Below, piece by piece: positions 42,185 to 57,526 of a DNA stretch of 64,000 bases. This DNA is from Candidatus Thorarchaeota archaeon (GTDB lineage: Archaea > Asgardarchaeota > Thorarchaeia > Thorarchaeales > Thorarchaeaceae). The notes beneath the pieces were generated by a model that was given only the letters and a program-made list of their open reading frames with translations, had not been told where the DNA came from and did no database searches. Position numbers and translations under genes: made by a program. The stretch covers positions 39 through 64,038 of the forward strand of contig JAOUFI010000001.1 in assembly GCA_029858305.1 (NCBI GenBank). The letters are read 5' to 3'. Position 1 is the first letter of the stretch, and each line of letters begins with the position of its first letter.

Positions 42185-43075
42185 TTACGGTTTGTTGCCT
42201 TTAGCATCTTGGAATAGATAATCTAATACGCTCTGCCATATAGTGCCATCGTCGCGGGCTTTGTTTTCAAAATTGTTTGTGTTGGTCCACTCTGCAAGAG
42301 CGATTTTAGCTGAATCAGGAAATGTATTCATACTGACTTTATCTAAATAGCCCAAGGAAACGAGAGCCTGTTGAATCTGAACTGAGAGAACACCCTCTAT
42401 CGGCTTCAAATTACTTGGATTCTCTCTACTAAGGAGCGTCATATCATATATTTTGAAAATACGTTCGAGCTCTTTGATGGGGCTGGGATGTTCATCAACA
42501 CGAACGTCAACATATCTATCATTTCCACCCTCATATCCTCCTTCTTTTCGTACAACAAGGATTGCAGCTGATTGCATTCCACGACGGTCACCACCAGCTG
42601 CCTGTCCAGCACTAAGTGCAGCAAAGAGCTTGTCAATCAGGTCGCCTTCAGTTCCCTCAAAAGCAATAGCCATATTGGCAACAACATCCTCTCCTGCAAG
42701 GATATTTCCTTGACAGGCGAATCCTTCTCCAATATGATGACCCGCCCAGCTCTTACATTCGTTACCTGTGTGCGCAGCAACATGCCCTTTCTGGTCTACG
42801 ATGCCTATCTGTCGATGTTGTGCTCCAGAGTCATTCTTAAGCAGGATTCGTAGGGTTTTTGATGCAGACTTACCCGCAGCCAGATAATCCAGGCCTCTTG
42901 GACCATAGGACACGTTTGCCCATGCCTGTGTTGCAATGGCTCCAATCTCTGCTTTAGCCCATGGTACAACAGAGCCCACTGCTGGAAACTTGGACTGCAC
43001 TATAATTCCAAAATCCCCGTTTGAGGGGTCTCTAGCAACAACAGAAAAGGTTGAGGGATGATTGAGTTTCACCAT
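42185..43075 (-). CDS. DUF1028 (Ntn-hydrolase-like) protein with C-terminal peptidoglycan-binding-like domain
   Basis: TFSVVARDPSNGDFGIIVQSKFPAVGSVVPWAKAEIGAIATQAWAN is the DUF1028 N-terminus (Thr after Met processing). C-terminal IQQALVSLGYLD resembles PG_binding repeats. Confidence 0.7.
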   Translation of the reverse strand: MVKLNHPSTFSVVARDPSNGDFGIIVQSKFPAVGSVVPWAKAEIGAIATQAWANVSYGPRGLDYLAAGKSASKTLRILLKNDSGAQHRQIGIVDQKGHVAAHTGNECKSWAGHHIGEGFACQGNILAGEDVVANMAIAFEGTEGDLIDKLFAALSAGQAAGGDRRGMQSAAILVVRKEGGYEGGNDRYVDVRVDEHPSPIKELERIFKIYDMTLLSRENPSNLKPIEGVLSVQIQQALVSLGYLDKVSMNTFPDSAKIALAEWTNTNNFENKARDDGTIWQSVLDYLFQDAKGNKP

Positions 43076-45036: not shown

Positions 45037-45798
45037 ATGAACTCTTTTGATGAAATCTCACTTGCATATGATAATACGATAGATTGGGTAGCTCGACTGA
45101 ATCGAGAGATTCCATTTCTTGTATCATTACTTAATGAACCTGAGAAGAAACGTGTTTTAGATATAGCCTGCGGAAGTGGACGTCATTCTGTGGCACTTGC
45201 AGCTCAGGGAGCTGAAGTTGTTGGTTTCGATATGAGCAGAACCATGATAGAGGCAGCTCAAAAACATGCAGAAGAAAATAGGGTAAAGCCTACATTCATT
45301 GTGGCAGATATGGTCGACATTGATTCTATAGTAGAGGGCTACTTCGATCTAATCTTCGTTCTAGGTAATTCTCTTGCTCTTTTGCATGATATTGATTCCG
45401 TAAGGAGCCTTGTCGAAACTATCTATCAGAGATTAAATGACGGAGGGTCCTTTCTTGCGCAGGTATTAAACTTCGAGGAAATCCATTGGACCGGATTTCG
45501 TAATTTCCCGACAAAAACAGGCAAATTGAACGATGGAACGGAGGTAACATTCTCAAGGATATTCGAACATTCTGATTATCCTGTTTCTTCGACCTTAATC
45601 ATGTCCGTCTTCAGGAAGACAAATGATGATTGGGTTTCGGAGGTTTCTACTCAGAAAGTACTCAATCTCAATTATAGTATAATGAGTGACATGTTGAACA
45701 TTGTCGGCTTCAGGGATGTAGAATTCTTCTCCGACTATAATGAGAGTCCTTTTGAGAAGAAGGTCAGCAGAAATATGGTGATTCGAGCAATTAGATGA
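45037..45798 (+). CDS. class I SAM-dependent methyltransferase
   Basis: VLDIACGSGRHS (motif I), VVGFDMS, ADM, LGNSL. Confidence 0.8.
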   Translation: MNSFDEISLAYDNTIDWVARLNREIPFLVSLLNEPEKKRVLDIACGSGRHSVALAAQGAEVVGFDMSRTMIEAAQKHAEENRVKPTFIVADMVDIDSIVEGYFDLIFVLGNSLALLHDIDSVRSLVETIYQRLNDGGSFLAQVLNFEEIHWTGFRNFPTKTGKLNDGTEVTFSRIFEHSDYPVSSTLIMSVFRKTNDDWVSEVSTQKVLNLNYSIMSDMLNIVGFRDVEFFSDYNESPFEKKVSRNMVIRAIR

Positions 45799-45859: not shown

Positions 45860-47413
45860 CTATGCTTTCATCCTTCTGCGAACAAATATTGAAACCACAC
45901 CAATGAATGTGCATAAGCCTACAACAGTTACAATAGCTATAACAGCTGTGTCATCATTGAGTGCTTTGGCAAGCGCAGCAGCAGCTGCATCCCAAGAATC
46001 TGCGATTGCAGTGAGATGAAGTCGAATCTCTGCTAGATCCTCATCAAATTCAGACACTGCAGATGACAAATCTCCATCAAGTACATGTTCATACTGATCT
46101 GCAATGCTGTTGAGAGTTTCAGATGTTATTGTAGCTCCTCCAGTATAGAATAAATTGTTGATACTCGAGTTATCGGTAAGAGCGGCAAAGTGCTCAAAGG
46201 CTTTTTCTCCTTCTGAAACAAATTGATCTAGATCTAGTTCAGGTAGCACATTTGGTAAGGCGCTGATTGCCATACGATATGATTCATACTGCAGTGTCAT
46301 ATACGCTTCAAGTTCAAGACCGATACTTTCTAGGATTCTGGCTTTTATTTGAAGTTCATATTCATCAAACTCATCCAAGTATGATGAGAGCCCAACTTCT
46401 GTCAATTCTGAGGCCAGAGCTCTGAATGCGTTTGACCCAAAATTCCAGAAGAAAATCTCTTCAGAAGCAGGGGCATAGGAAGTTCTATCACCACGTAACC
46501 TATCCAGAATGTAATTTCCGAGGATACTCGTGAAGTCATTGTTAATCCCAGAACCGGGTTTGATGACAACAGAGGCATAGGATTTTCTCCACGCTTGATT
46601 CAATGATGTGAAATTAATTTCATAGAACCAGCTTTCATCATCAGGAGTTGCAACGCAGTTTTCAAGCACGCCAATTGCAGGATCCATGACATAGGCAACG
46701 CCTGCAGTTTCATTGTAACCATTTATCAGAATTGAGTGAGAGGGATTACTGTCACTCAAACCTAAGTCTCTGATGAAATCGTAATCTGGATGTGGAAGAT
46801 GGTATAGATCAACATAGACCTCTACTGGATTCCCGTCATCAATACTACTCTTCAGAACCTGAAATGCATCATCCCATCCATCAAGCTCAGTCCAATTTAC
46901 ATTGTTTGCTTGGAGTACCAATTCAAAGAGAGCTGCAAATTCTGAGCAGTCGGTATCAACATAGAACTCAACATCAAGCCCGTAGAGCTCTGCTATGTTA
47001 GCGTATGTAACTTGCTGTCTATAAATGGGTCCGGACACAAAAATCCAGTTGTCTTCATATCGCACGTAGCCAGCAGAGAATCCAATCCCAGATACTGCAC
47101 ACATGCCGGCTAGGTCCAAGGAAATGCCAACACTTTGTAATGCCATAGCTTGAGTTGCCCAGTGACATAACCCATTCATTTGCTGCGAAACATATGATAT
47201 TCCGGCCACATTTCCAGAATCGGCTAAACTCAGAGTATTAAACGATTCATCGTGGTTTGATAAATAGCCTTCACTATAATGTAGAGTATTCTGAGACCCT
47301 ACTAATAGCAACACTAGGATTATTGCACATATTTTAAGAAAGAAAAAAGATCGAGGCTTGGTGGTAGCCACCAAGACATCGATCGTTGCGCAATAAAGGA
47401 GGTTTATCCGCAA
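45860..47413 (-). CDS. surface-exposed C39-like (papain-fold) cysteine peptidase domain protein with C-terminal TM anchor
   Basis: TTG start with GAGGTG SD. N-terminal hydrophobic segment. QQMNGLCHWATQAMAL (Gln-x5-Cys) and SHSILINGYNE..AYVMDP (His..Asp-Pro) as in Peptidase_C39-like/BtrH-like domains. Helical C-terminal half. Final helix AVIAIVTVVGLCTFIGVVSIF followed by RRRMKA. Confidence 0.55.
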   Translation of the reverse strand: MRINLLYCATIDVLVATTKPRSFFFLKICAIILVLLLVGSQNTLHYSEGYLSNHDESFNTLSLADSGNVAGISYVSQQMNGLCHWATQAMALQSVGISLDLAGMCAVSGIGFSAGYVRYEDNWIFVSGPIYRQQVTYANIAELYGLDVEFYVDTDCSEFAALFELVLQANNVNWTELDGWDDAFQVLKSSIDDGNPVEVYVDLYHLPHPDYDFIRDLGLSDSNPSHSILINGYNETAGVAYVMDPAIGVLENCVATPDDESWFYEINFTSLNQAWRKSYASVVIKPGSGINNDFTSILGNYILDRLRGDRTSYAPASEEIFFWNFGSNAFRALASELTEVGLSSYLDEFDEYELQIKARILESIGLELEAYMTLQYESYRMAISALPNVLPELDLDQFVSEGEKAFEHFAALTDNSSINNLFYTGGATITSETLNSIADQYEHVLDGDLSSAVSEFDEDLAEIRLHLTAIADSWDAAAAALAKALNDDTAVIAIVTVVGLCTFIGVVSIFVRRRMKA

Positions 47414-47428
47414 TTATTACACCTCAGT

Positions 47429-49114
47429 CTAATTATCAGGACTAGAGAGCTTGCGAATCCCTTTCCAGACAAGAATTCCTCCTATCGTCCACTGAACCAG
47501 TACACCAATGAATGACATCCCAATCATCATATTTCCAGGACCAAAGAAATCTTCTACGATTCCAAAGACATTGATGTTAAGAGCGAGCGATGCAAGCAAA
47601 TCAACAAAGATAACCCCGATGATGGAGAATTCCGCAATCATAACTGACGCCATAACATTTGTCTGATGTGCGGGTGATTTTGTATCCTCATAATTGGGAT
47701 TTCCAGCTGTTATGCCAGTTGAAACCAACATGCCTCCAAATATTGCCATATATCCTATACCAACTATCGCCAAGAGTTCTGTGGCAGTCATCCTGATTAA
47801 GAACGACATTACGAGTGAAGGTATCGCGATCAGAGCAATGCAAATCACTGCCTGAGTTACAATTCGACTCTTCACAAATTTGGATGCGCCTGAAGGAGCA
47901 CCTTGGATGATCCAGAGTTGATCTTTGCTCTCGAGGAATCCAGCACCTGCAAAAGGCATTGCACCTACAAGTGCCATCATTGCAATTATAGTGAGGAACA
48001 TATCACTCAGTTGGTAATCACCAATATCCATGGACGTTATGATTACTGGCATTATTATAGCTAAGACTACTCCATAGAAGATCTTGGAGAGGTTCTGTGC
48101 CTTTCGCATGAAGTCCTTGAAGTTTGTCACCATGAGTGATCCAAAGGGACCTGAATTTAGTCTTCGCACACCGCGTAGAATGAAATTCTCCTTGCCAACG
48201 GTAGTGACAACCTCTGTACGAACACCGGCCTCGATTGTAAAGACTCTATCAGTCATTCCCAAGGCCAATCCAATAGTTACCAATACAAAACCACCCATGA
48301 GAACAGTGCTGGTTAGCATATCTAACTGTAAGATACTTCCAAATCCTATGATTTGAGATCCTGTTAGTCCTACACCATTGAATGCCACTGCAAACCAACT
48401 CATGGTATCTGCAAACCATGTTGAGGGCAGAATCAGGAATGCATTCATACCCATCATCTCAGACATCGTAGGTAGAAAGAACATCAAACCGTACATCGGG
48501 ATGATGACTACTATTGCAACAACCATTGCAAGAGCTTTTGCTATGTCATTTCCTCGGGATGATTCGCCTAGTCTAGCTTGAATAACACTAGTTATGAAAT
48601 TAGAGAGCCAGATTGTACCCAAAGACATTAGCGTGATTACTCCATAGATCAGAATCTGACCTATCAGGTTTACTTCAAACGCCAGAACCAAGGGCGTAAT
48701 CAGAAGAGGCGCAAGGAATATCACAATCAATCCGAAAAGGGGTATCTTACCGAAGAAGGTTCCAGCCAGAATGCTTCTTGTTCGAACGTTGTTTGACAGG
48801 AAAATTTCCCATTGACCTACTTTGATTTCTTGGAGAGCGTAAGATAGAGGGAATAATAGAAGCACAATCCAAAGGAATAATGCTACTGTACGCATGAGAC
48901 CAGGAAATACCATCTGAAGCAGGGGTTGAAGTGTTGCCATAGGAATTATCGCACTAATTACACCTCCAATCAATATAGGAGCTCCAATGACTGCCCAGAT
49001 GAAGGCTAGAGATGTGAGAATTCCTAGGTATGCTCGCCTATGCGGCCTCATACTTGCAGAAAGAACCAAGTACTCGGCTTTTGCAATTGCAAGCCATTGT
49101 CGTACCACTTGCAT
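47429..49114 (-). CDS. ABC transporter permease (large, about 12+ TM)
   Basis: Polytopic throughout. The ATG at 49114 overlaps the ATPase stop in GGAGGTAATG, so it is preferred to the track start at 49123. Confidence 0.7.
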   Translation of the reverse strand: MQVVRQWLAIAKAEYLVLSASMRPHRRAYLGILTSLAFIWAVIGAPILIGGVISAIIPMATLQPLLQMVFPGLMRTVALFLWIVLLLFPLSYALQEIKVGQWEIFLSNNVRTRSILAGTFFGKIPLFGLIVIFLAPLLITPLVLAFEVNLIGQILIYGVITLMSLGTIWLSNFITSVIQARLGESSRGNDIAKALAMVVAIVVIIPMYGLMFFLPTMSEMMGMNAFLILPSTWFADTMSWFAVAFNGVGLTGSQIIGFGSILQLDMLTSTVLMGGFVLVTIGLALGMTDRVFTIEAGVRTEVVTTVGKENFILRGVRRLNSGPFGSLMVTNFKDFMRKAQNLSKIFYGVVLAIIMPVIITSMDIGDYQLSDMFLTIIAMMALVGAMPFAGAGFLESKDQLWIIQGAPSGASKFVKSRIVTQAVICIALIAIPSLVMSFLIRMTATELLAIVGIGYMAIFGGMLVSTGITAGNPNYEDTKSPAHQTNVMASVMIAEFSIIGVIFVDLLASLALNINVFGIVEDFFGPGNMMIGMSFIGVLVQWTIGGILVWKGIRKLSSPDN

Positions 49115-49902
49115 TACCTCCATGCAAGAAGGGCCTTTCTGTCCACCTGACCACCGACTACTTTCAAGTAGGCATCTTCAAGATCATCTACTTTCATCGA
49201 GTCAATGATATCATTTGGTGCGCCATGAACTACAAGTTCTCCAGCATTGAGAATACCAATGACATCGCAGACATCTTCAGCAAACGAGGTCTGGTGTGTG
49301 CAGATGAAGAAACTAGTTTCCGTTTCCTCTGCCAAAGCAAGAATCAGATCCTTGACAAGTACGCTCGCTGATGGATCAAGTCGTGAAGTAGGTTCGTCAA
49401 GGAATACTAGCTTGGGTTCATGTAGAAGTGTTGATGCAACCAGTACTTTCTGCTTCATTCCGGAAGAGTATGACTCCAGAAGATCGTCTTGTCGTCCTTC
49501 AAGTCCAAGCATTCCCAATAGACTGTCAATGCGTCTGTTTAGTACCTCGCCACTCTTTCCATTCAGTGCTCCTATGAACTCCAGAAATTCCACTGCTGAT
49601 AGCTTGGAGTACAATCCAGGAGACTCAGGAAGTAGACCGGTTGCAGCCTTGATTGCATCTCGTTGAGTGCTCACATCAAAACCGCACACCGCAGCGTTGC
49701 CGCTCGTCTGTTTCAAGAGCCCAGACAGTATTCTCACAGTTGTGGTCTTGCCTGCCCCATTGGGGCCAAGAAAACCAAACCTGCTACCAGAGGAAACCTC
49801 CAGGTTCAGATTTCTGACAGCCTGAACAGAGCCGAAGTTCTTGTTCAGGTCTTCAGTCCGAATTACCGTTCCATTTCGTGCCATTATTGTTAACCACCGC
49901 AA
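49114..49902 (-). CDS. ABC transporter ATP-binding protein (ABC-2/DrrA-like)
   Basis: Walker A GPNGAGKTT, signature YSSGMKQK, Walker B LVFLDEPTS, H-loop CTH. Confidence 0.9.
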   Translation of the reverse strand: MRWLTIMARNGTVIRTEDLNKNFGSVQAVRNLNLEVSSGSRFGFLGPNGAGKTTTVRILSGLLKQTSGNAAVCGFDVSTQRDAIKAATGLLPESPGLYSKLSAVEFLEFIGALNGKSGEVLNRRIDSLLGMLGLEGRQDDLLESYSSGMKQKVLVASTLLHEPKLVFLDEPTSRLDPSASVLVKDLILALAEETETSFFICTHQTSFAEDVCDVIGILNAGELVVHGAPNDIIDSMKVDDLEDAYLKVVGGQVDRKALLAWR

Positions 49903-49932
49903 AGCTGTAAAAGTTTACAGCGCGATGGTAAA

Positions 49933-49956
49933 GATTTATATTCGTTTGCATATAAA
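49933..49956. promoter_or_regulatory. palindromic pair of TATA-like boxes in a divergent 123-nt spacer
   Basis: ATTTATAT-tcgtttgc-ATATAAAT between the ABC operon (-) and the 50026 operon (+). Confidence 0.3.
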
Positions 49957-50025
49957 TGTTTACCACAACGCAGTAAAGTTTGACCAGAAAAGGTTAAAAC
50001 GTAGCGTGACACGAGGAAGTGTGCA

Positions 50026-50682
50026 ATGGGATTACTCTCGACTCATGAAGCAGTGGTCTGGTGGGAATACCATCACGGGAAACCCACTTCAGATATCTTC
50101 AGTGAGTATGAGAAGCCCAAGGATATTCCTGAGTATATTTTCAACATCCTTGCTAGTGAGATTGATGGCAAGATCAACGACAAGAAGAAAGCAATGAAGG
50201 AGAAAGAAAAAGTACGCAGGATGCAATTCACAAGCGCAGCATATGTTTCTAGGGTTCTGAGTAGAGCAAAGTCAAAGATTGAGGATACTCTCAAGCAACA
50301 TGCCAACAGTCATCGATTGGATACTGAAAATGTTGACGGAGAGAAGGGTTTTCTCACAGGCTTTGATTATCAAGCCAACACGAACGTATACATTGTCTTT
50401 ACGCTCGGACTTGGTGTAATCATCTGGTATGAACACACCAACTATGGTGGAAAACTATGTGATGGAACACCATTTGAGTCCCAAAAAACAAGTGATGGAA
50501 AACAGTGTCCAAAACTTGAGGAGTGTAGAGAGACCCTCAACACCATTCTCAAAGAATACAATCTGACCTTGAACCCTAAGGAAGAAGAGATGTATATGAC
50601 TCAGCAGTCTATACGCATCTTTGGCAAGCTTGGTGCAAAACAACTTCCTCGCTATCAGAGAGAAACACAAGAAGGTGAATAA
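50026..50682 (+). CDS. hypothetical soluble protein, possible DNA-binding lead gene of the bPH2 operon
   Basis: 218 aa. Lys/Glu-rich helix followed by FTSAAYVSRVLSRAKSKIEDTL (HTH-like, weak) and a Cys triad CDG..CPKLEEC. Its stop overlaps the next gene's GTG (GTGAATAA). Confidence 0.5.
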   Translation: MGLLSTHEAVVWWEYHHGKPTSDIFSEYEKPKDIPEYIFNILASEIDGKINDKKKAMKEKEKVRRMQFTSAAYVSRVLSRAKSKIEDTLKQHANSHRLDTENVDGEKGFLTGFDYQANTNVYIVFTLGLGVIIWYEHTNYGGKLCDGTPFESQKTSDGKQCPKLEECRETLNTILKEYNLTLNPKEEEMYMTQQSIRIFGKLGAKQLPRYQRETQEGE

Positions 50683-51409
50683 AACGAACGAGGAAGTAGC
50701 AGCTGGGTATTTTCCAGCAATTGAGAGTATAACTAGTGGAAAGACGTTCAGGCCATCAAAGGCCTTGCGGAGCAAGTACTGGTTCACTGCCATAATGGTT
50801 GCCATAGTAACCTGGTTTATGGTCATTGGACTTGTCTACGGTGTATCATTCCTGATATCATTGGATGAGGGTTGGAATCATGCATTCTTCATCAGCCAGT
50901 GGTTGGGTGTTGTGAACTATTGGACAATTGTAGGTGAACTAGTCTGGTTGATTCCTGCATTAATTGGCATTCCAGTCTATGTCAACTCCATCGAGTACTC
51001 GGTGATTTCCGAAACTGGAGAGGCATCTCCGGAGATCTATGTTCGCAAGGGAATCATCAACATTACCAAGAAACATGTACCATTCAGAACAATTACGAAC
51101 ATCTCATCGAGAGCTGGTGTGATTGACAGGCTTTTTGGCATCGGAAATGTAGAGATTCAGACAGCCGGATACTCAGGAGGCCCGAGTGGTCAATCAGGTC
51201 CAGAAGAGAAACTTGAGGGAATCAAGTCCTACGAGGCATTGACACGATTTGTTCTAGGTGAGCTCAGGAAATTCAGAGATCCCTATACAACAGGCACGGA
51301 AGTCATCTTTCCACGGGATGAAGCAGTCCAAAGAATTGAAGGTTCTTTGGACGACGAAATTCTGCTGGCAATTCGAGATATTCGAGAGATTCTTAGGAGC
51401 AAACTGTAA
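50675..51409 (+). CDS. bPH2 (YdbS/YdbT-like, PF03703-type) membrane protein, paralog 1
   Basis: N-terminal SGKTFRPSKA, TM hairpin(s), then IEYSVISETGE..PEIYVRKGIINITKKHVPFRTITNISSRAGVIDRLFGIGNVEIQTAGYSGG. GTG start at 50675 is inferred from alignment with paralogs 2-4. Confidence 0.7.
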   Translation: MNKTNEEVAAGYFPAIESITSGKTFRPSKALRSKYWFTAIMVAIVTWFMVIGLVYGVSFLISLDEGWNHAFFISQWLGVVNYWTIVGELVWLIPALIGIPVYVNSIEYSVISETGEASPEIYVRKGIINITKKHVPFRTITNISSRAGVIDRLFGIGNVEIQTAGYSGGPSGQSGPEEKLEGIKSYEALTRFVLGELRKFRDPYTTGTEVIFPRDEAVQRIEGSLDDEILLAIRDIREILRSKL

Positions 51410-51424
51410 CATAAGAGTAGGAAA

Positions 51425-52186
51425 GTGAATAAAATGGGAAGCGAAGAAGGGCGGGTCATAAGACCACCAATGGAAGATGTGACTAGGGGTAAAGTCTTTA
51501 CACCGGATACGAGATTCTATTACAAAGAATGGTTCAATGCAACATTTGCTGCAATTTTCTTGTGGATGATGGCAATTGGAGTACTCATCTTGGGTGCATG
51601 GATCTATATGATGGATAATGATGAGTCATGGGCAACCTTCTTCGCAATTTTCTTTGATGTACTCCCTATTCTCAGCTTCTGGTATGCAATTTCATTGGTA
51701 TTCTGGTGGCTTCCCATCATGGTAGGTATTCCTTTGTACATCAGAAGTATCGAGTATAGCGTCATCTCGAAGTCCGGATTAGTAATGCCGGAAATATACG
51801 TCAAAAAAGGATTGATCAATGTCACCAGAAAGCATGTTCCATTCAGGACTATAACTAACATCTCTTCGAGAGCTGGTCCTGTGGACAGACTATTTGGTAT
51901 AGGGACTGTTGAGATTCAGACAGCCGGATACTCCGGAGGCGCAGGTGGCCAAACGGGGCCTGAAGAAAAATTAGAGGGGATAACCTTCTATGAGGAGGTC
52001 AGAGACTTCATTCTGCAGGAACTGAGAAGATTCAGAGACCCCTATGTCACAGGGACAGAGGTAGTTCTACCCAGAGATGAGCCAATCCCTAGATTGCATG
52101 ACAGTCTAGACGATGAGATGCTCATGACACTTCGTGAGATTAGAAACGTGTTAGAACGAATCGAAAAGAAATTGGAGGAGAGTTAA
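51425..52186 (+). CDS. bPH2 membrane protein, paralog 2
   Basis: Same architecture and core motif (IEYSVISKSG..KKGLINVTRKHVPFRTITNISSRAGPVDRLFGIGTVEIQTAGYSGG). Confidence 0.7.
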   Translation: MNKMGSEEGRVIRPPMEDVTRGKVFTPDTRFYYKEWFNATFAAIFLWMMAIGVLILGAWIYMMDNDESWATFFAIFFDVLPILSFWYAISLVFWWLPIMVGIPLYIRSIEYSVISKSGLVMPEIYVKKGLINVTRKHVPFRTITNISSRAGPVDRLFGIGTVEIQTAGYSGGAGGQTGPEEKLEGITFYEEVRDFILQELRRFRDPYVTGTEVVLPRDEPIPRLHDSLDDEMLMTLREIRNVLERIEKKLEES

Positions 52187-52188
52187 AG

Positions 52189-52911
52189 ATGGCAGGAGAA
52201 GGAAAAGTAATCAAACCACCAGTTGAAAATGTAGCAAGTGGAAAGGTATTCAGACCTTCCAAAGCCTTTCGAAATAAGATGTGGTTTATTGGAGTTTTCA
52301 CTGCAGTGGTACTCTGGATAATCATTTTCGGCTCATTCGCCCTTACACTCTGGCTTGTAGATTGGATTACAGGGTCTAGTACAAGCGTTTCATCATTCTT
52401 TCAGTACTGGTGGTTGACTCTGAATATCTGGTACTGGGTCATTACAGCAATCTGGTTGATACCAGGAGTCATAATTGTCCCATACTATCTGAGATCCATA
52501 GAGTACTCGGTGATAGCGCAGTCTGGAGAAACAATGCCGGAAATCTTTGTGAAGAAAGGAATAATTAACATAACGCGAAAACATGTCCCATTTCGTACTA
52601 TAACGAACATTTCCAGCAGAGCGGGACTTTTCGACAGACTGTTTGGAATCGGATCTATTGAGGTTGAAACAGCTGGGTACTCTGGTGCGACCACATCAGC
52701 GGAGGAGAAGCTCGAGGGGATAACATTCTATGAAGAACTTAGAGACTTCATTCTGAGAGAGTTGAGGAAGTTCAAAGATCCTTATGTTACCGGAACGGAG
52801 GTTGTACTCCCGGAAGAAGACCAGATTGTAAGAATCGACGACAATCTTGAGGATGAGATCCTATCGGTTCTACGAGAGATACGTGACTTACTAAGAAGAC
52901 AGAAAGAGTGA
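52189..52911 (+). CDS. bPH2 membrane protein, paralog 3
   Basis: Same architecture and core motif. GGAGGAG SD lies inside the end of paralog 2. Confidence 0.7.
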   Translation: MAGEGKVIKPPVENVASGKVFRPSKAFRNKMWFIGVFTAVVLWIIIFGSFALTLWLVDWITGSSTSVSSFFQYWWLTLNIWYWVITAIWLIPGVIIVPYYLRSIEYSVIAQSGETMPEIFVKKGIINITRKHVPFRTITNISSRAGLFDRLFGIGSIEVETAGYSGATTSAEEKLEGITFYEELRDFILRELRKFKDPYVTGTEVVLPEEDQIVRIDDNLEDEILSVLREIRDLLRRQKE

Positions 52912-52923
52912 GGTTGGTATCTA

Positions 52924-53682
52924 ATGACCCATGATGAGGAGCGAGTGATAAGACCTCCAATAGACCAGATATCGAGCGGTAGAGTGTTCCAACCAACTAA
53001 TGCGTTCCTCTACAAGAAAATGCTCAAGGTCGGAACAGTCCTTGTCCTCATATGGTTTGCATTACGAGTTTTGTTTATCGGATTCACTAATCCCACCTTT
53101 CTAGAAATTATCCTGGCTTTGTCACAACCACTAGAGATTCTAGTCATGATTGGATGGGAAACAACCAACATAGTCTATGTTTCAGTTGCGCTCGCCTTCT
53201 TTATTGTGGGTTCGATATACTCATTCATCTACGTGAGGAGAATTGAGTATTCAGTTTTAGGATGGGAAGGAGATGCAATGCCAGAGATTTACACTCGAAA
53301 GGGGATTATCAATATCACAAAGAAGCATGTCCCATTCAGGACTATCGTGAACGTGCGAACGCGCAAAGGGATCTTTGATAGACTGTTTGGCATCGGAACA
53401 GTCTTGATTGAGACCGCAGGAGGCTCAACAGGTGTCCAGCCAACTGGACTTATTTCAGTCATAATTCAAAGATTGAGATCGGAAGCTGAAGAGAAGATTG
53501 AGGGCATAAAATTCCACGAGGAACTACGAGACTTCATACTCCGAGAGATGCGATTTTTTGGTAGGAGTGCTCCGATATCTACGACTGCAAGACATTTGAG
53601 GAACAGAAGACGAGTTTTAACCAGGAATACCTTGGATGCTTTTATAGAGATTCGAGATGTTCTGAGAGAAAGCGAGAGATAA
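52924..53682 (+). CDS. bPH2 membrane protein, paralog 4 (divergent)
   Basis: The core is retained (IEYSVLGWEG..RKGIINITKKHVPFRTIVNVRTRKGIFDRLFGIGTVLIETAG). The GYSGG loop and the acidic C-terminal tail are replaced by a longer loop and a basic tail. Confidence 0.65.
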   Translation: MTHDEERVIRPPIDQISSGRVFQPTNAFLYKKMLKVGTVLVLIWFALRVLFIGFTNPTFLEIILALSQPLEILVMIGWETTNIVYVSVALAFFIVGSIYSFIYVRRIEYSVLGWEGDAMPEIYTRKGIINITKKHVPFRTIVNVRTRKGIFDRLFGIGTVLIETAGGSTGVQPTGLISVIIQRLRSEAEEKIEGIKFHEELRDFILREMRFFGRSAPISTTARHLRNRRRVLTRNTLDAFIEIRDVLRESER

Positions 53683-53700
53683 AACAGGAGGTGACTGTAA

Positions 53701-53793
53701 ATGGACTGGAGAATTATAGCGGCTTTGATATTATTGATACTGGGTTCTATTGCGTTTATGGTACTTTACCTGATTTCATCTGGTTTCTTTTAG
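53701..53793 (+). CDS. unannotated 30-aa transmembrane micropeptide
   Basis: Hand-translated: MDWRIIAALILLILGSIAFMVLYLISSGFF. GGAGGTG SD lies 7 nt upstream. It starts 18 nt after paralog 4. Confidence 0.35.
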   Translation: MDWRIIAALILLILGSIAFMVLYLISSGFF

Positions 53794-53799
53794 GAGAAT

Positions 53800-54645
53800 C
53801 TATAGTACATAGTTGAAGATTTTCATGATTTGTCCGATATTGACTAGACTTCTATGAGCCTCTTCTCGGGGCCGTACTTCAAACACAAACTGCGGTTTTG
53901 CAGATAGTTTGCTGAGGAAACTTAATGTTTCTTGAAAGTCGATAAGTCCATTTCCGACAACCTGATGCTCCCCAATCTGAGGAATGAGATCATGAACATG
54001 AACAACCTCGATAGATCCCTTGTATCTTTGGAATAGATTCCAATCTGCCTCCTTTAGTTTTAGATCTAAGCCATATAGCTTTGGAATATCAAGACACAGC
54101 TTCAGACCTTGGGGAATGAGATGCTCTATCACTTCGCGAATGAGTGGTGTCCAATTTACATTTTCAATAACCAGTCTGACTTGTGGCCGCGCATGTGTAA
54201 GAAGCTCTGACAGATTTTCGCGAAGGACTTGAGCATAGACCGATTGGTATTGTTGGCTGAAGCCATCTGGGGGGTGGTTGCCTGCTTTTCTAAAGCTTGG
54301 TGGAACCCCAGCATGTATGACCACATTTGTTGGTCCTATACTGAGCTCTCGTGCCAGATTGATGATTTGTTTGAAGTGTGAAATCACTCCGTTTCTGATT
54401 GGAGGATAGGTCGATAGCAAGCTGACATCGTCACCAGGCGCATGAAATCCCCACTCGATGGAGAATTCTCGCGATAAATCTCGTAAAACAGTCCGCTCAT
54501 TGGATGAAATTTTCTCTGGTGAGAAAATCGGGACACCTAGATCAGGAACTATACCATTCCAATCATTCGCGGCAGCATATCTGATTGATTCAGCTAGTGA
54601 GGTGTCGTACACTGCATGGTATGCTCGTCGAGTGGGAAATTGCAT
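53800..54645 (-). CDS. xylose-isomerase-like TIM-barrel protein (sugar phosphate isomerase/epimerase family)
   Basis: GFHAP, VVIHAG, LVIEN, CLDIPK, VHVHD series typical of the AP-endonuclease-2/TIM-barrel family. Confidence 0.65.
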   Translation of the reverse strand: MQFPTRRAYHAVYDTSLAESIRYAAANDWNGIVPDLGVPIFSPEKISSNERTVLRDLSREFSIEWGFHAPGDDVSLLSTYPPIRNGVISHFKQIINLARELSIGPTNVVIHAGVPPSFRKAGNHPPDGFSQQYQSVYAQVLRENLSELLTHARPQVRLVIENVNWTPLIREVIEHLIPQGLKLCLDIPKLYGLDLKLKEADWNLFQRYKGSIEVVHVHDLIPQIGEHQVVGNGLIDFQETLSFLSKLSAKPQFVFEVRPREEAHRSLVNIGQIMKIFNYVL

Positions 54646-56416: not shown

Positions 56417-57526
56417 CTACTTCTGCTCCTTTTTCATAGTCTTCATTATATCCTTTCCACGCAGATAATCTGTTCTTGCGTTTAGATATGCTAGAGTAAT
56501 GTATTGCTGGTGAATGGCAAAGGTCATTGCAGGAGATAGATAGAAGTTCTTAACAGCACCTATAGATCCTGTGAATCTCTGATCATAATCTTCTTCCCAT
56601 GCAAGATGGTCACCGATTCTGTAGAAACTACTGAAAGCTAATAGGTTGTATCTCCCAACATTGGCTTTCAATAGCAGAGACACATGTGAATCTTCGGAAA
56701 GCACTTTGGTTATTCTGGGCTTGTTTCTTATTATTTCTAGCTTTGAGATAACCAAGAAATACTCAGGCGGTGTCCATATTCGAGGGAACCGACAGACTGG
56801 AGGTTGAATAATCTTCTCATTTATGAGTAGGTCGATTCGTCGCTGGACTGTTCTTCGATGAACATTCAGTGATTTTGCGATATTATTTGGATTGACATGA
56901 ATACCCTTGCCAGACAGAAGAGCCTCCAAAAGATCAACAGATAATTCATCTAATTTCAACCCATTAATTGTGGGGTGAAAACCTAGTTTGAAATTCTCTC
57001 TAAAGGTATTAATTGGTGCAGCTGAATCAGACTTTACTATTGCTTTTGTGCTTAGGTAGATAGGATCAGAGGGAATGTAGTCTATTCCCGACCTTGATGA
57101 AACCATATCATCAGTCAATGACCGCTCCTTCCACAATTGGTAGTCATAGAGGTCTTTATGCAGCTCAATCATCAACGTATTATATTCTTCCTCTTTGAAG
57201 AAGAATGCTGCCCAGATATTAGGATCCAATTCAATCCAAAGGTTAGTCTTGGGATCCCGAGGAAGCCCAATCTTCTCAATGACTAGAAGGGGGTGTTCAT
57301 TTAGTAGCCAAGGAAATGGTAGAAACGGCCGATCAATTATCTCATGTTGGAGTAGTTGCTCATATCGGGATTGAATTGTGTTTCTATGTTTTCCTAGGAG
57401 CTTGGAGAGCTCACTAATGTTGACATCAATACCTTCTCCAGCGCAAACGAGTTTCAGGAGTTCAATATTGATAGGATCATTCAGCAGCGTATTCAATGAA
57501 CTTACTCCTAGTAGTTCTTTCCACAT
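56417..57526 (-). CDS. transcriptional regulator with two wHTH (Lrp/TrmB-like) modules
   Basis: NISELSKLLGKHRNTIQSRYEQLLQHEII and NPNNIAKSLNVHRRTVQRRIDLLINEKII, each followed by a ~100-aa domain. Divergent from gdh. Confidence 0.6.
   Translation of the reverse strand: MWKELLGVSSLNTLLNDPINIELLKLVCAGEGIDVNISELSKLLGKHRNTIQSRYEQLLQHEIIDRPFLPFPWLLNEHPLLVIEKIGLPRDPKTNLWIELDPNIWAAFFFKEEEYNTLMIELHKDLYDYQLWKERSLTDDMVSSRSGIDYIPSDPIYLSTKAIVKSDSAAPINTFRENFKLGFHPTINGLKLDELSVDLLEALLSGKGIHVNPNNIAKSLNVHRRTVQRRIDLLINEKIIQPPVCRFPRIWTPPEYFLVISKLEIIRNKPRITKVLSEDSHVSLLLKANVGRYNLLAFSSFYRIGDHLAWEEDYDQRFTGSIGAVKNFYLSPAMTFAIHQQYITLAYLNARTDYLRGKDIMKTMKKEQK

Follow-up and report, generated by a model that had tools for sequence, protein, structure and literature searches.

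The locus described here occupies positions 45,860 to 53,793 of a 64,000-nucleotide stretch of contig JAOUFI010000001.1 (Candidatus Thorarchaeota archaeon, GenBank assembly GCA_029858305.1), which we refer to as the window. Two divergent operons meet at an intergenic control region. On one side are genes for an ATP-binding cassette (ABC) ATPase, a permease and a surface-anchored papain-like protein resembling C39 peptidases (hereafter the C39-like protein). On the other side are a gene for a soluble protein, P218, four paralogous genes for membrane proteins with a pleckstrin homology (PH) domain of the bPH_2 type (bPH_A to bPH_D), and an open reading frame (ORF) for a micropeptide. All nine ORFs had been listed in a first-pass annotation of the letters, and all nine are found in place in the ORF list and its translations (Table 1). 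Our reading, held with middling confidence, is that the locus may be a regulator-controlled envelope export/protection regulon of this Asgard archaeon. The argument begins with the control region.

The first-pass annotation described a "palindromic TATA pair" in the spacer between the two operons. Two TATA boxes are indeed present, at 49934-49941 and 49950-49957. Because the host is an Asgard archaeon, bacterial promoter logic is inapplicable, and the pair is two back-to-back archaeal promoters, each with a TFB-recognition element (BRE) and a TATA box. A scan for sigma-70 promoters, irrelevant in an archaeon, gave no excess over shuffled sequence and was set aside. An inverted repeat with 35-nt arms (49907-41 and 49950-84, 80% complementary) spans both TATA boxes. 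The spacer motif is GCTGTAAA-AG-TTTACAGC, and there are four spacer matches, with at most one mismatch, to GTAAANNTTTAC. These GTAAA-N2-TTTAC sites fall at 49907-18 (a perfect copy), 49928-39, 49952-63 and 49973-84. Together with the TATA boxes, they are arranged with mirror symmetry about position 49945.5. The window as a whole, for which 1.55 matches were expected, contains these four, all in the spacer.

The same palindrome was found in related loci. Two sets were available: 80 loci that a genome scan gave with the C39-like family as seed, for which the window proteins were mapped onto six-frame ORFs, and 80 more from a metagenome scan seeded with P218. The palindrome is kept in orthologous spacers between P218 and the ATPase gene. 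In other phyla, stand-alone P218 genes have it directly behind their TATA box; the sequence in a Bathyarchaeota chromosome is tttataAGTAAATGTTTACT. Within the 150 nt upstream of P218, 58 of 75 loci have a perfect palindrome, and 72 have one with at most a single mismatch. The remaining 552 kb of the P218 loci hold no perfect copy, and copies with one mismatch occur there at 0.025 per kb. Similarly, 1.18 Mb of C39-seeded loci contain 11 perfect palindromes, every one of them within a P218/ATPase spacer. We thus regard the palindrome as a family-specific putative operator that abuts the TATA box. Since the promoter-operator unit is an inverted duplicate in the window lineage, both the P218-bPH operon and the ATPase-permease-(C39-like) operon appear to bear putative operator sites, over BRE/TATA and just downstream. 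Archaeal repressors classically bind in the stretch that separates the TATA box from the start point. The P218 palindrome sits there, and hence we infer a repressor role.

The candidate protein to bind the operator is P218 itself. The protein has 143 homologues, including 167-aa forms with the source name Bathyarchaeota; no Pfam family and no PDB sequence matched it. In an alignment of 23 homologues, the N-terminal pattern (LSxHExxVW..GK.TS.IA ... YVSRVLxRARxKI) recalls the helix-turn-helix (HTH) of LuxR-type proteins and sigma region 4. The C-terminal alpha/beta domain has invariant residues H137, C145, C161 and C167 (Cys3His) in the same homologues. With hhalign, the N-terminus aligned in register over three helices with the LuxR-type HTH domains of six E. 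coli proteins (narL, uhpA, rcsB, sdiA, csgD and evgA) at 91% (P 1e-6), and the value was 93% when the sigma region 4 sequences of RpoE and FecI were added to the set. The C-terminal domain of P218, used as the control, gave 0.3-1.2%. The AlphaFold2 (AF2) model of P218 has a predicted local distance difference test score (pLDDT) of 86 and a predicted template modelling score (pTM) of 0.82. P218 is an undescribed archaeal protein family with a predicted LuxR/sigma region 4-like HTH, and it is probably a DNA-binding regulator. The HTH profile match and the gene-specific palindrome also lend weight to the first-pass guess that the 218-aa protein is "regulator-like". We dropped a reading of the locus as a defence system: among seven window proteins submitted to PADLOC (all except bPH_B and the micropeptide), the ATPase gave generic P-loop matches, five proteins gave none, and P218 gave two weak matches only (PglX, 7.6e-4; LmuB, 3.9e-3).

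Pairs of extracytoplasmic function (ECF) sigma and anti-sigma factors offer a parallel. As predicted for P218 and bPH, a small protein with a sigma region 4-like HTH shares a transcript with a membrane protein, their translation is coupled, and the pair regulates its own expression. P218 and bPH might thus form a membrane-tethered signalling pair. Here, bPH would be both sensor and anti-regulator: it would tether P218 at the membrane and, when the envelope is perturbed, let it go or bind it. Effector roles would fall to the pump and the surface enzyme alone, and having four or five paralogues would diversify the signals. The obligate pairing of the genes, with the P218 stop overlapping the bPH start, is what such a system would look like, as are the predicted autoregulation, the alignment of P218 with sigma region 4/LuxR HTH domains and a conserved cytoplasmic motif at the bPH N-termini. 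However, the pairs mostly stand alone, and no other operator-bearing gene was found in ~1.8 Mb, so the sensor would regulate only itself; moreover, a single regulator gene faces four or five bPH genes. The likeness to ECF pairs also has limits. P218 lacks sigma region 2 (no Pfam match, and no match to Sigma70_r2 in 23 family members at E<=5), the archaeal RNA polymerase uses TBP/TFB rather than sigma factors, and the P218 site is a palindrome that lies past the TATA box but short of the start site, as a repressor site would. We consider a signalling pair of this kind doubtful. Only tentatively, and at the same low level of confidence, do we put forward a more specific proposal. In this, P218 and bPH_2 would be the archaeal counterpart of a sigma/anti-sigma switch: a hetero-oligomeric PH ring of four subunits plus micropeptide would sense bilayer damage or a peptide substrate, set the availability of the sigma region 4-like repressor and so drive the ABC-2 exporter and the surface Cys-hydrolase in Thorarchaeota.

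A bacterial precedent for bPH_2 proteins under an envelope-stress regulator is the ydbST pair of B. subtilis. Butcher and Helmann, in 2006, are said to have reported a role for ydbST in intrinsic resistance to antimicrobial compounds. The pair belongs to the sigma-W envelope-stress regulon (PMC3498285). As in our reading of the window locus, the bPH_2 membrane proteins are there controlled by a regulator with an HTH of the sigma region 4 type. Sigma-W differs from P218 in being a genuine sigma factor, the gene for which lies elsewhere together with that for its anti-sigma factor, and ydbST has neither an adjacent ABC transporter or peptidase nor a palindromic operator.

Gene neighbourhoods place P218 and bPH at the centre of the locus. 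The full layout (TIM-barrel gene, four or five bPH genes, P218, ATPase, permease, C39-like and methyltransferase genes) is found in more than 20 Thorarchaeota and related contigs, and is kept down to ~39% identity of the C39-like protein. P218 followed directly by a single bPH_2 gene occurs in a chromosome of Bathyarchaeota and in one contig each from Thorarchaeota and 'Ranarchaeia', in unrelated contexts that have neither ABC nor C39-like genes. In the P218-seeded loci, a bPH gene follows P218 wherever downstream sequence exists, with one type of exception. The exception (L116, 8713-9117; also L115) has an IS607-like element, with a MerR-type HTH and a serine-recombinase motif, where bPH is expected; its insertion explains the lack of bPH.

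Among 36 P218-bPH loci with room on both sides, 25 have no ABC neighbour, eight have the ATPase/permease pair divergent from P218, and three have the co-directional order P218-bPH-ATPase-permease. The ABC pair therefore appears to be an add-on, and the ancestral job of the P218-bPH pair need not be export. The ABC genes occur in three gene orders: two are divergent, one with a bPH array and the other with a lone bPH gene, and the third is co-directional. Arrays of at least two bPH genes adjoin ABC genes in nine of nine cases. The first-pass annotation had taken the two operons to form one envelope module. Two results favour such a link: the specific operator common to both arms, symmetric over both promoters, and the adjacency of the ABC pair to the P218-bPH pair in three gene orders. 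The fixed composition was not borne out; the core is P218 plus one bPH gene, alone in most lineages, and the C39-like gene is present in three of nine testable ABC loci. Linkage of the arms is thus supported by common cis-elements and by association in three orders, synteny alone being insufficient. The composition is modular, and the function of the module is inferred.

On the far side of the ABC operon, at window positions 45037-45798 (+), is a gene for a class I S-adenosylmethionine (SAM) methyltransferase. In stand-alone Thorarchaeota pairs, the methyltransferase gene lies directly upstream of P218 (L084, 7116-7877; L116, 7129-7890; L109, 3-740). Because of this adjacency, the arrangement suggests that the ABC cassette was inserted between the methyltransferase gene and P218, with the promoter-operator unit duplicated in inverted orientation. 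Amplification of bPH to between two and five copies would have taken place only in lineages with an ABC neighbour.

The assignment of the four paralogues to the bPH2 family, made at first pass, is firm: they match PF03703 at 38.6-41.8 bits against a cut-off of 22. They are 240-262 aa long and 41-57% identical pairwise, bPH_D being 41-45% identical to the other three. Each has a K/R-rich N-terminus and two to three hydrophobic segments before the domain, with an uncharged inter-membrane loop. The predicted topology, judged from the positive-inside rule only, is an N-terminal transmembrane hairpin followed by a cytoplasmic PH domain. The start of bPH_A is probably the GTG at 50675, which overlaps the P218 stop, and not the TTG at 50621. 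By score profiles, several loci have orthologues in the same A-B-C-D order, and every array examined ends with a D-type gene; bPH_C is the best match for most single-copy bPH homologues.

The micropeptide ORF is preceded by the Shine-Dalgarno sequence GGAGGTGA and encodes an uncharged single transmembrane helix. With phmmer, the only matches were in near-identical contigs, which made the ORF look lineage-specific. We rejected this view, since a positional search shows conservation: in 17 arrays, the final bPH gene has a hydrophobic ORF of 25-33 aa behind it, and these ORFs have G-x-x-(L/M)-F-x-x-(A/F)-L-x-x-Y in common. No such ORF follows single-copy bPH genes. Soluble PHb domains assemble into pentameric and dodecameric rings, and Xu et al. 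predicted that membrane DUF304 proteins carry intracellular PHb domains and proposed that they oligomerise through them (PMC2817789). Given this precedent, the fixed A-B-C-D order with its distinct last member and the conserved micropeptide, the fixed, non-redundant paralogues and the small transmembrane subunit would fit a hetero-oligomer.

The ATPase matches ABC_tran in Pfam (2.6e-25), and its best NCBIfam match is TIGR01188, drrA (4.4e-62); the latter, at 210 bits, is under the subfamily cut-off of 312 bits. Walker A, signature and Walker B motifs are intact in the translation. The true start is likely the ATG at 49884, so that the protein begins MARNG. One candidate ATG of the permease gene overlaps the ATPase stop, within GGAGGTAATG. 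Hydropathy indicates ~12 transmembrane segments in a 6+6 arrangement with a basic central loop. The window permease has no Pfam match and no useful PDB sequence match. Its family is small, with 174 matching representatives among 1.84 billion proteins, and a word-based homologue search returned unnamed close relatives only. Five of ten remote family members match ABC2_membrane_3, at 1e-6 to 4e-3, all below the cut-off. The DrrA-like ATPase, the 6+6 membrane arrangement and these remote matches together point to an ABC-2-type exporter. One Thorarchaeota clade (L016, 4743-11350; L017-L023, L039, L110) has a second ATPase gene between the permease and C39-like genes, and has five bPH genes, not four; L016 additionally has a second permease.

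The C39-like gene has a TTG start behind a GAGGTG Shine-Dalgarno sequence. The first-pass description of its 517-aa product as papain/C39-like holds at the level of profiles: the match to Peptidase_C39_2 (PF13529) is at 33 bits, with a cut-off of 24, and that to BtrH_N (PF14399) at 31.7 bits, with a cut-off of 29.7. The BtrH_N/Peptidase_C39_2 region is joined to a helical DUF4872-like domain. Residues Q77, C83, H226 and D244, the papain-type catalytic set, are invariant in an alignment of 22 homologues of 36-81% identity. Because the protein has an N-terminal hydrophobic signal/anchor, and a C-terminal transmembrane segment followed by the Arg-rich tail RRRMKA, its catalytic body should lie outside the cell. 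Homologues with source names are all from Asgard archaea, mostly Thorarchaeota with some Hermod-, Hod-, Sif- and Promethearchaeota.

Likeness to C39 leader peptidases, conversely, is not borne out. A PDB profile search gave a single match, 3erv, a "putative C39-like peptidase" (4.6e-4). The AF2 model (pLDDT 76.5) has long C-terminal helices. Its best Foldseek matches were AziU3/U2, CcbD and CtaG (E 1.5e-5 to 9e-4, TM-target 0.5-0.6, ~410-460 columns), and the C39 domain of PCAT1 matched weakly (E 6e-3 or worse). The fold thus fits the two-domain BtrH/CcbD/CtaG enzymes and not the double-glycine leader peptidases. No match to PF03412 was found in the C39-like protein at E<=0.1. In PCAT1-type transporters, a papain-like Cys peptidase is also associated with an ABC exporter. 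There, the peptidase is cytoplasmic, specific for double-glycine leaders and fused to the pump, which is a type IV exporter; here, an ABC-2-like pump is accompanied by an unfused protein at the cell surface. The closer relatives, transacylases of the BtrH/CcbD/CtaG/AziU3-U2 type (BtrH_N plus DUF4872), share the BtrH_N match and the Cys/His/Asp set and are the best structural matches. However, these enzymes are cytoplasmic and act on carrier-protein thioesters in antibiotic biosynthesis. The signal/anchor and the C-terminal transmembrane segment of the archaeal BtrH-like protein would place it outside the cytoplasm, and it is more probably hydrolytic. We read it as a candidate surface-anchored hydrolase.

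We also rejected the idea that the C39-like protein is the core of the module. Its gene is absent from six of the nine testable ABC loci (L090-L093, L102, L126), including relatives in which P218 is 84-88% identical to the window protein, and paralogues occur in unrelated context. In ~55 further loci, a paralogous C39-like gene lies in another conserved context (DUF3160, SBP_bac_5, DUF255, radical SAM) and the other module genes are absent. This paralogous C39/BtrH-like surface group (L024-L082; for example L045, 7475-15728, and L059, 5258-17424) shows 32-38% identity. A DUF3160 gene is directly upstream on the same strand, with genes for a radical SAM protein and a GNAT protein upstream; downstream are genes for an SBP_bac_5 protein with a C-terminal transmembrane anchor and a DUF255 thioredoxin-like protein. 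The neighbourhood may be an extracellular peptide-handling cluster. In two further loci, from Hermod- and Promethearchaeota, the ATPase-permease-C39 triad is kept outside bPH contexts (L065, 3505-9893; L076, 5702-11362). The triad faces two to three tandem genes for polytopic paralogues of ~210 aa, with no Pfam match and an N-terminal ERKAYLSYHQDG motif, and then a gene for a winged-helix HTH_34 regulator. The result is a window-like layout made from unrelated parts.

These two contigs bear on a different view of the ABC operon. In bacteria, FtsEX-type complexes activate the PcsB, RipC and CwlO hydrolases. By analogy, the ABC proteins could be a mechanotransducer that activates the extracellular papain-like hydrolase on S-layer or surface proteins, the bPH operon being merely co-regulated. 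The triad without bPH, the close spacing of the hydrolase gene behind the permease gene in one operon and the long C-terminal helices of the enzyme would all suit such a surface-remodelling machine. The permease would not, since it is a 12-segment ABC-2-like protein without the large extracytoplasmic domain of FtsX/MacB. In addition, the hydrolase is missing from many loci that keep the ABC genes. We find this explanation very improbable.

The association of bPH_2 proteins with an exporter has a closer parallel. In E. faecalis, genetics show that the leaderless bacteriocin EntDD14 depends for its export on the bPH_2 proteins DdE and DdF, the genes for which adjoin the ABC genes ddHIJ; the lacticin Q and aureocin A53 loci have homologues of them (PMC8657885). 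The first-pass annotation, which knew of no described system with such a composition, is not borne out on this point; leaderless-bacteriocin loci already join bPH_2 with ABC transporters (PMC8657885). These Firmicutes loci (enterocin DD14 ddCDEFGHIJ; lacticin Q lnqBCDEF; aureocin A53 orf7/orf8) resemble the window locus in having PF03703-type PH membrane proteins, ABC genes and small hydrophobic peptides. They differ in being bacterial and in having a pair of a YdbS-like protein (one PH domain) and a YdbT-like protein (three PH domains), as opposed to four or five single-PH paralogues here. They carry structural genes for cationic bacteriocins, whereas the conserved small ORF here encodes an uncharged membrane helix, and they have neither a P218-type regulator and operator nor a surface BtrH/C39-like enzyme.

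On this model, the archaeal locus could be a producer system that exports and matures an endogenous peptide or surface component, in the leaderless-bacteriocin or PCAT manner, with bPH proteins as export accessories and the C39-like protein processing the product outside. The shared make-up with the EntDD14, lacticin Q and aureocin A53 loci, the papain-like enzyme beside the exporter and the conserved small ORF that closes the array would be explained. However, the micropeptide is not a cationic amphipathic bacteriocin, the ORF list of the locus offers no other candidate precursor gene, and the C39-like gene is dispensable in close relatives. Nor is there a PF03412-type leader peptidase or a fusion to the pump. 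Repressor-type control and a stand-alone ancestral pair fit a stress response better. A producer system therefore seems to us quite unlikely.

For the regulon that we favour, the following mechanism can be proposed. Dimers of P218 would repress both operons by occluding access of TBP/TFB and RNA polymerase. Repression would be lifted by a signal, the sensor of which could be the Cys3His domain of P218, the bPH proteins in the membrane, or the two combined. Once induced, the products would work jointly at the envelope. There, the micropeptide and the four bPH paralogues in their fixed order would assemble into a hetero-oligomeric membrane ring with PH domains facing the cytoplasm, and the ABC-2-type pump would export a compound that is lipophilic or acts on membranes, a peptide being most plausible. 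The surface-anchored papain-like enzyme, where present, would cleave or modify the exported compound outside the cell.

Several observations weigh against this regulon. P218 has no Pfam HTH; a relaxed scan of the 23 homologues gave noise, with GerE in one of 23 at E 0.18. The turn of the predicted HTH is atypical: 3 aa are inserted there in short forms of the protein, and a helical stretch of ~50 aa in the window protein. Foldseek of the whole P218 model finds no DNA-binding fold and no match below E 0.5. The predicted operator could be bound by a factor other than P218. The closest folds of the C39-like protein are cytoplasmic carrier-protein-dependent transacylases, a poor fit to an extracellular location. 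No substrate peptide gene was found at the locus; no ORF with a double-glycine leader stands out in the ORF list, small ORFs having otherwise been screened only for hydrophobic ones after the last bPH gene. The 25 P218-bPH pairs that lack an ABC neighbour count against it too. Finally, the unrelated flanking genes, for the TIM-barrel protein and the methyltransferase, are equally syntenic in the clade, so adjacency alone is weak evidence.

Syntenic flanks of this kind, together with the occurrence of each arm alone, would be expected if the two operons had no functional link and were neighbours by inherited synteny. Three results argue otherwise. The putative operator is common to both arms, highly specific and symmetric over both promoters. 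The same ATPase/permease family adjoins P218-bPH in three orders, including within one operon. Multi-copy bPH arrays occur only beside ABC genes. The absence of any functional link is the explanation to which we give least credence.

Table 1. Features of the divergent locus in window coordinates, with the evidence for each.
Feature	Position	Strand	Evidence
Surface-anchored papain-like Cys enzyme, predicted, 517 aa; last gene of the ABC operon, accessory	45860..47413	-	Pfam, alignment, AF2
Permease, fused 6+6 transmembrane segments; small unnamed ABC-2-like family	47429..49123	-	Hydropathy, transitive matches
ABC ATPase, probably of DrrA/ABC-2 type	49114..49902	-	ABC_tran match; drrA match below the subfamily cut-off
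Divergent archaeal control region, 123 nt	49903..50025		Sequence, motif scan
P218, putative autoregulatory transcription factor, 218 aa, soluble	50026..50682	+	Alignment, hhalign, AF2
bPH_A, two-segment transmembrane hairpin and predicted cytoplasmic bPH_2 domain	50621..51409	+	PF03703 1.3e-9
bPH_B, paralogue	51425..52186	+	PF03703 8.7e-10; orthologous position kept
bPH_C, paralogue closest to the single-copy form	52189..52911	+	PF03703 6.7e-10
bPH_D, divergent paralogue, always last in arrays	52924..53682	+	PF03703 1.3e-10
Micropeptide, 30 aa, single transmembrane segment; closes the bPH operon	53701..53793	+	Shine-Dalgarno, positional conservation

Other genes in the window were also inspected. 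A gene for a xylose-isomerase-like TIM-barrel protein (53800-54645, -) runs towards the bPH operon and leaves only 6 nt to the stop of the micropeptide ORF. It has a weak CbiR-like match (1.3e-14, below the cut-off) and is syntenic in most Thorarchaeota arrays. A DUF1028 protein fused to a putative peptidoglycan-binding domain (PG_binding_2, 2.6e-14) is encoded at 42185-43075 (-), an odd fusion in an archaeon without known peptidoglycan. The sole signal in a 369-aa protein encoded at 56417-57526 (-) is a short HTH (HTH_30/HTH_36, ~aa 200-236), and it may be another uncharacterised regulator. Scans of the window for tRNA genes and with Rfam gave no matches.

Proteins of the bPH_2 family (DUF304, YdbS/YdbT) are very common in bacteria and archaea, and their mechanism is obscure. 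An envelope module that combines bPH_2 with ABC proteins is already known in kind, given the EntDD14-type loci and the sigma-W-controlled ydbST. New are the archaeal setting, a dedicated regulator family with its putative operator, an amplified array of fixed order with a micropeptide, and an optional surface BtrH-like enzyme. No relevant paper came up in a literature search on Asgard PH domains and transcription factors. On our reading, bPH_2 would gain a dedicated partner, an undescribed regulator family with a short operator of high specificity; one lineage would add a defined group of envelope genes under common control. For Asgard archaea, a candidate transcription factor and regulon would be added. 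The circuit is a testable one, of one protein (P218), one 12-bp site, one pump and one enzyme, and it would give a concrete experimental handle on bPH_2 proteins. If the sigma/anti-sigma-like switch were true, it would give the bPH_2 domain its first defined signalling role and cis-element.

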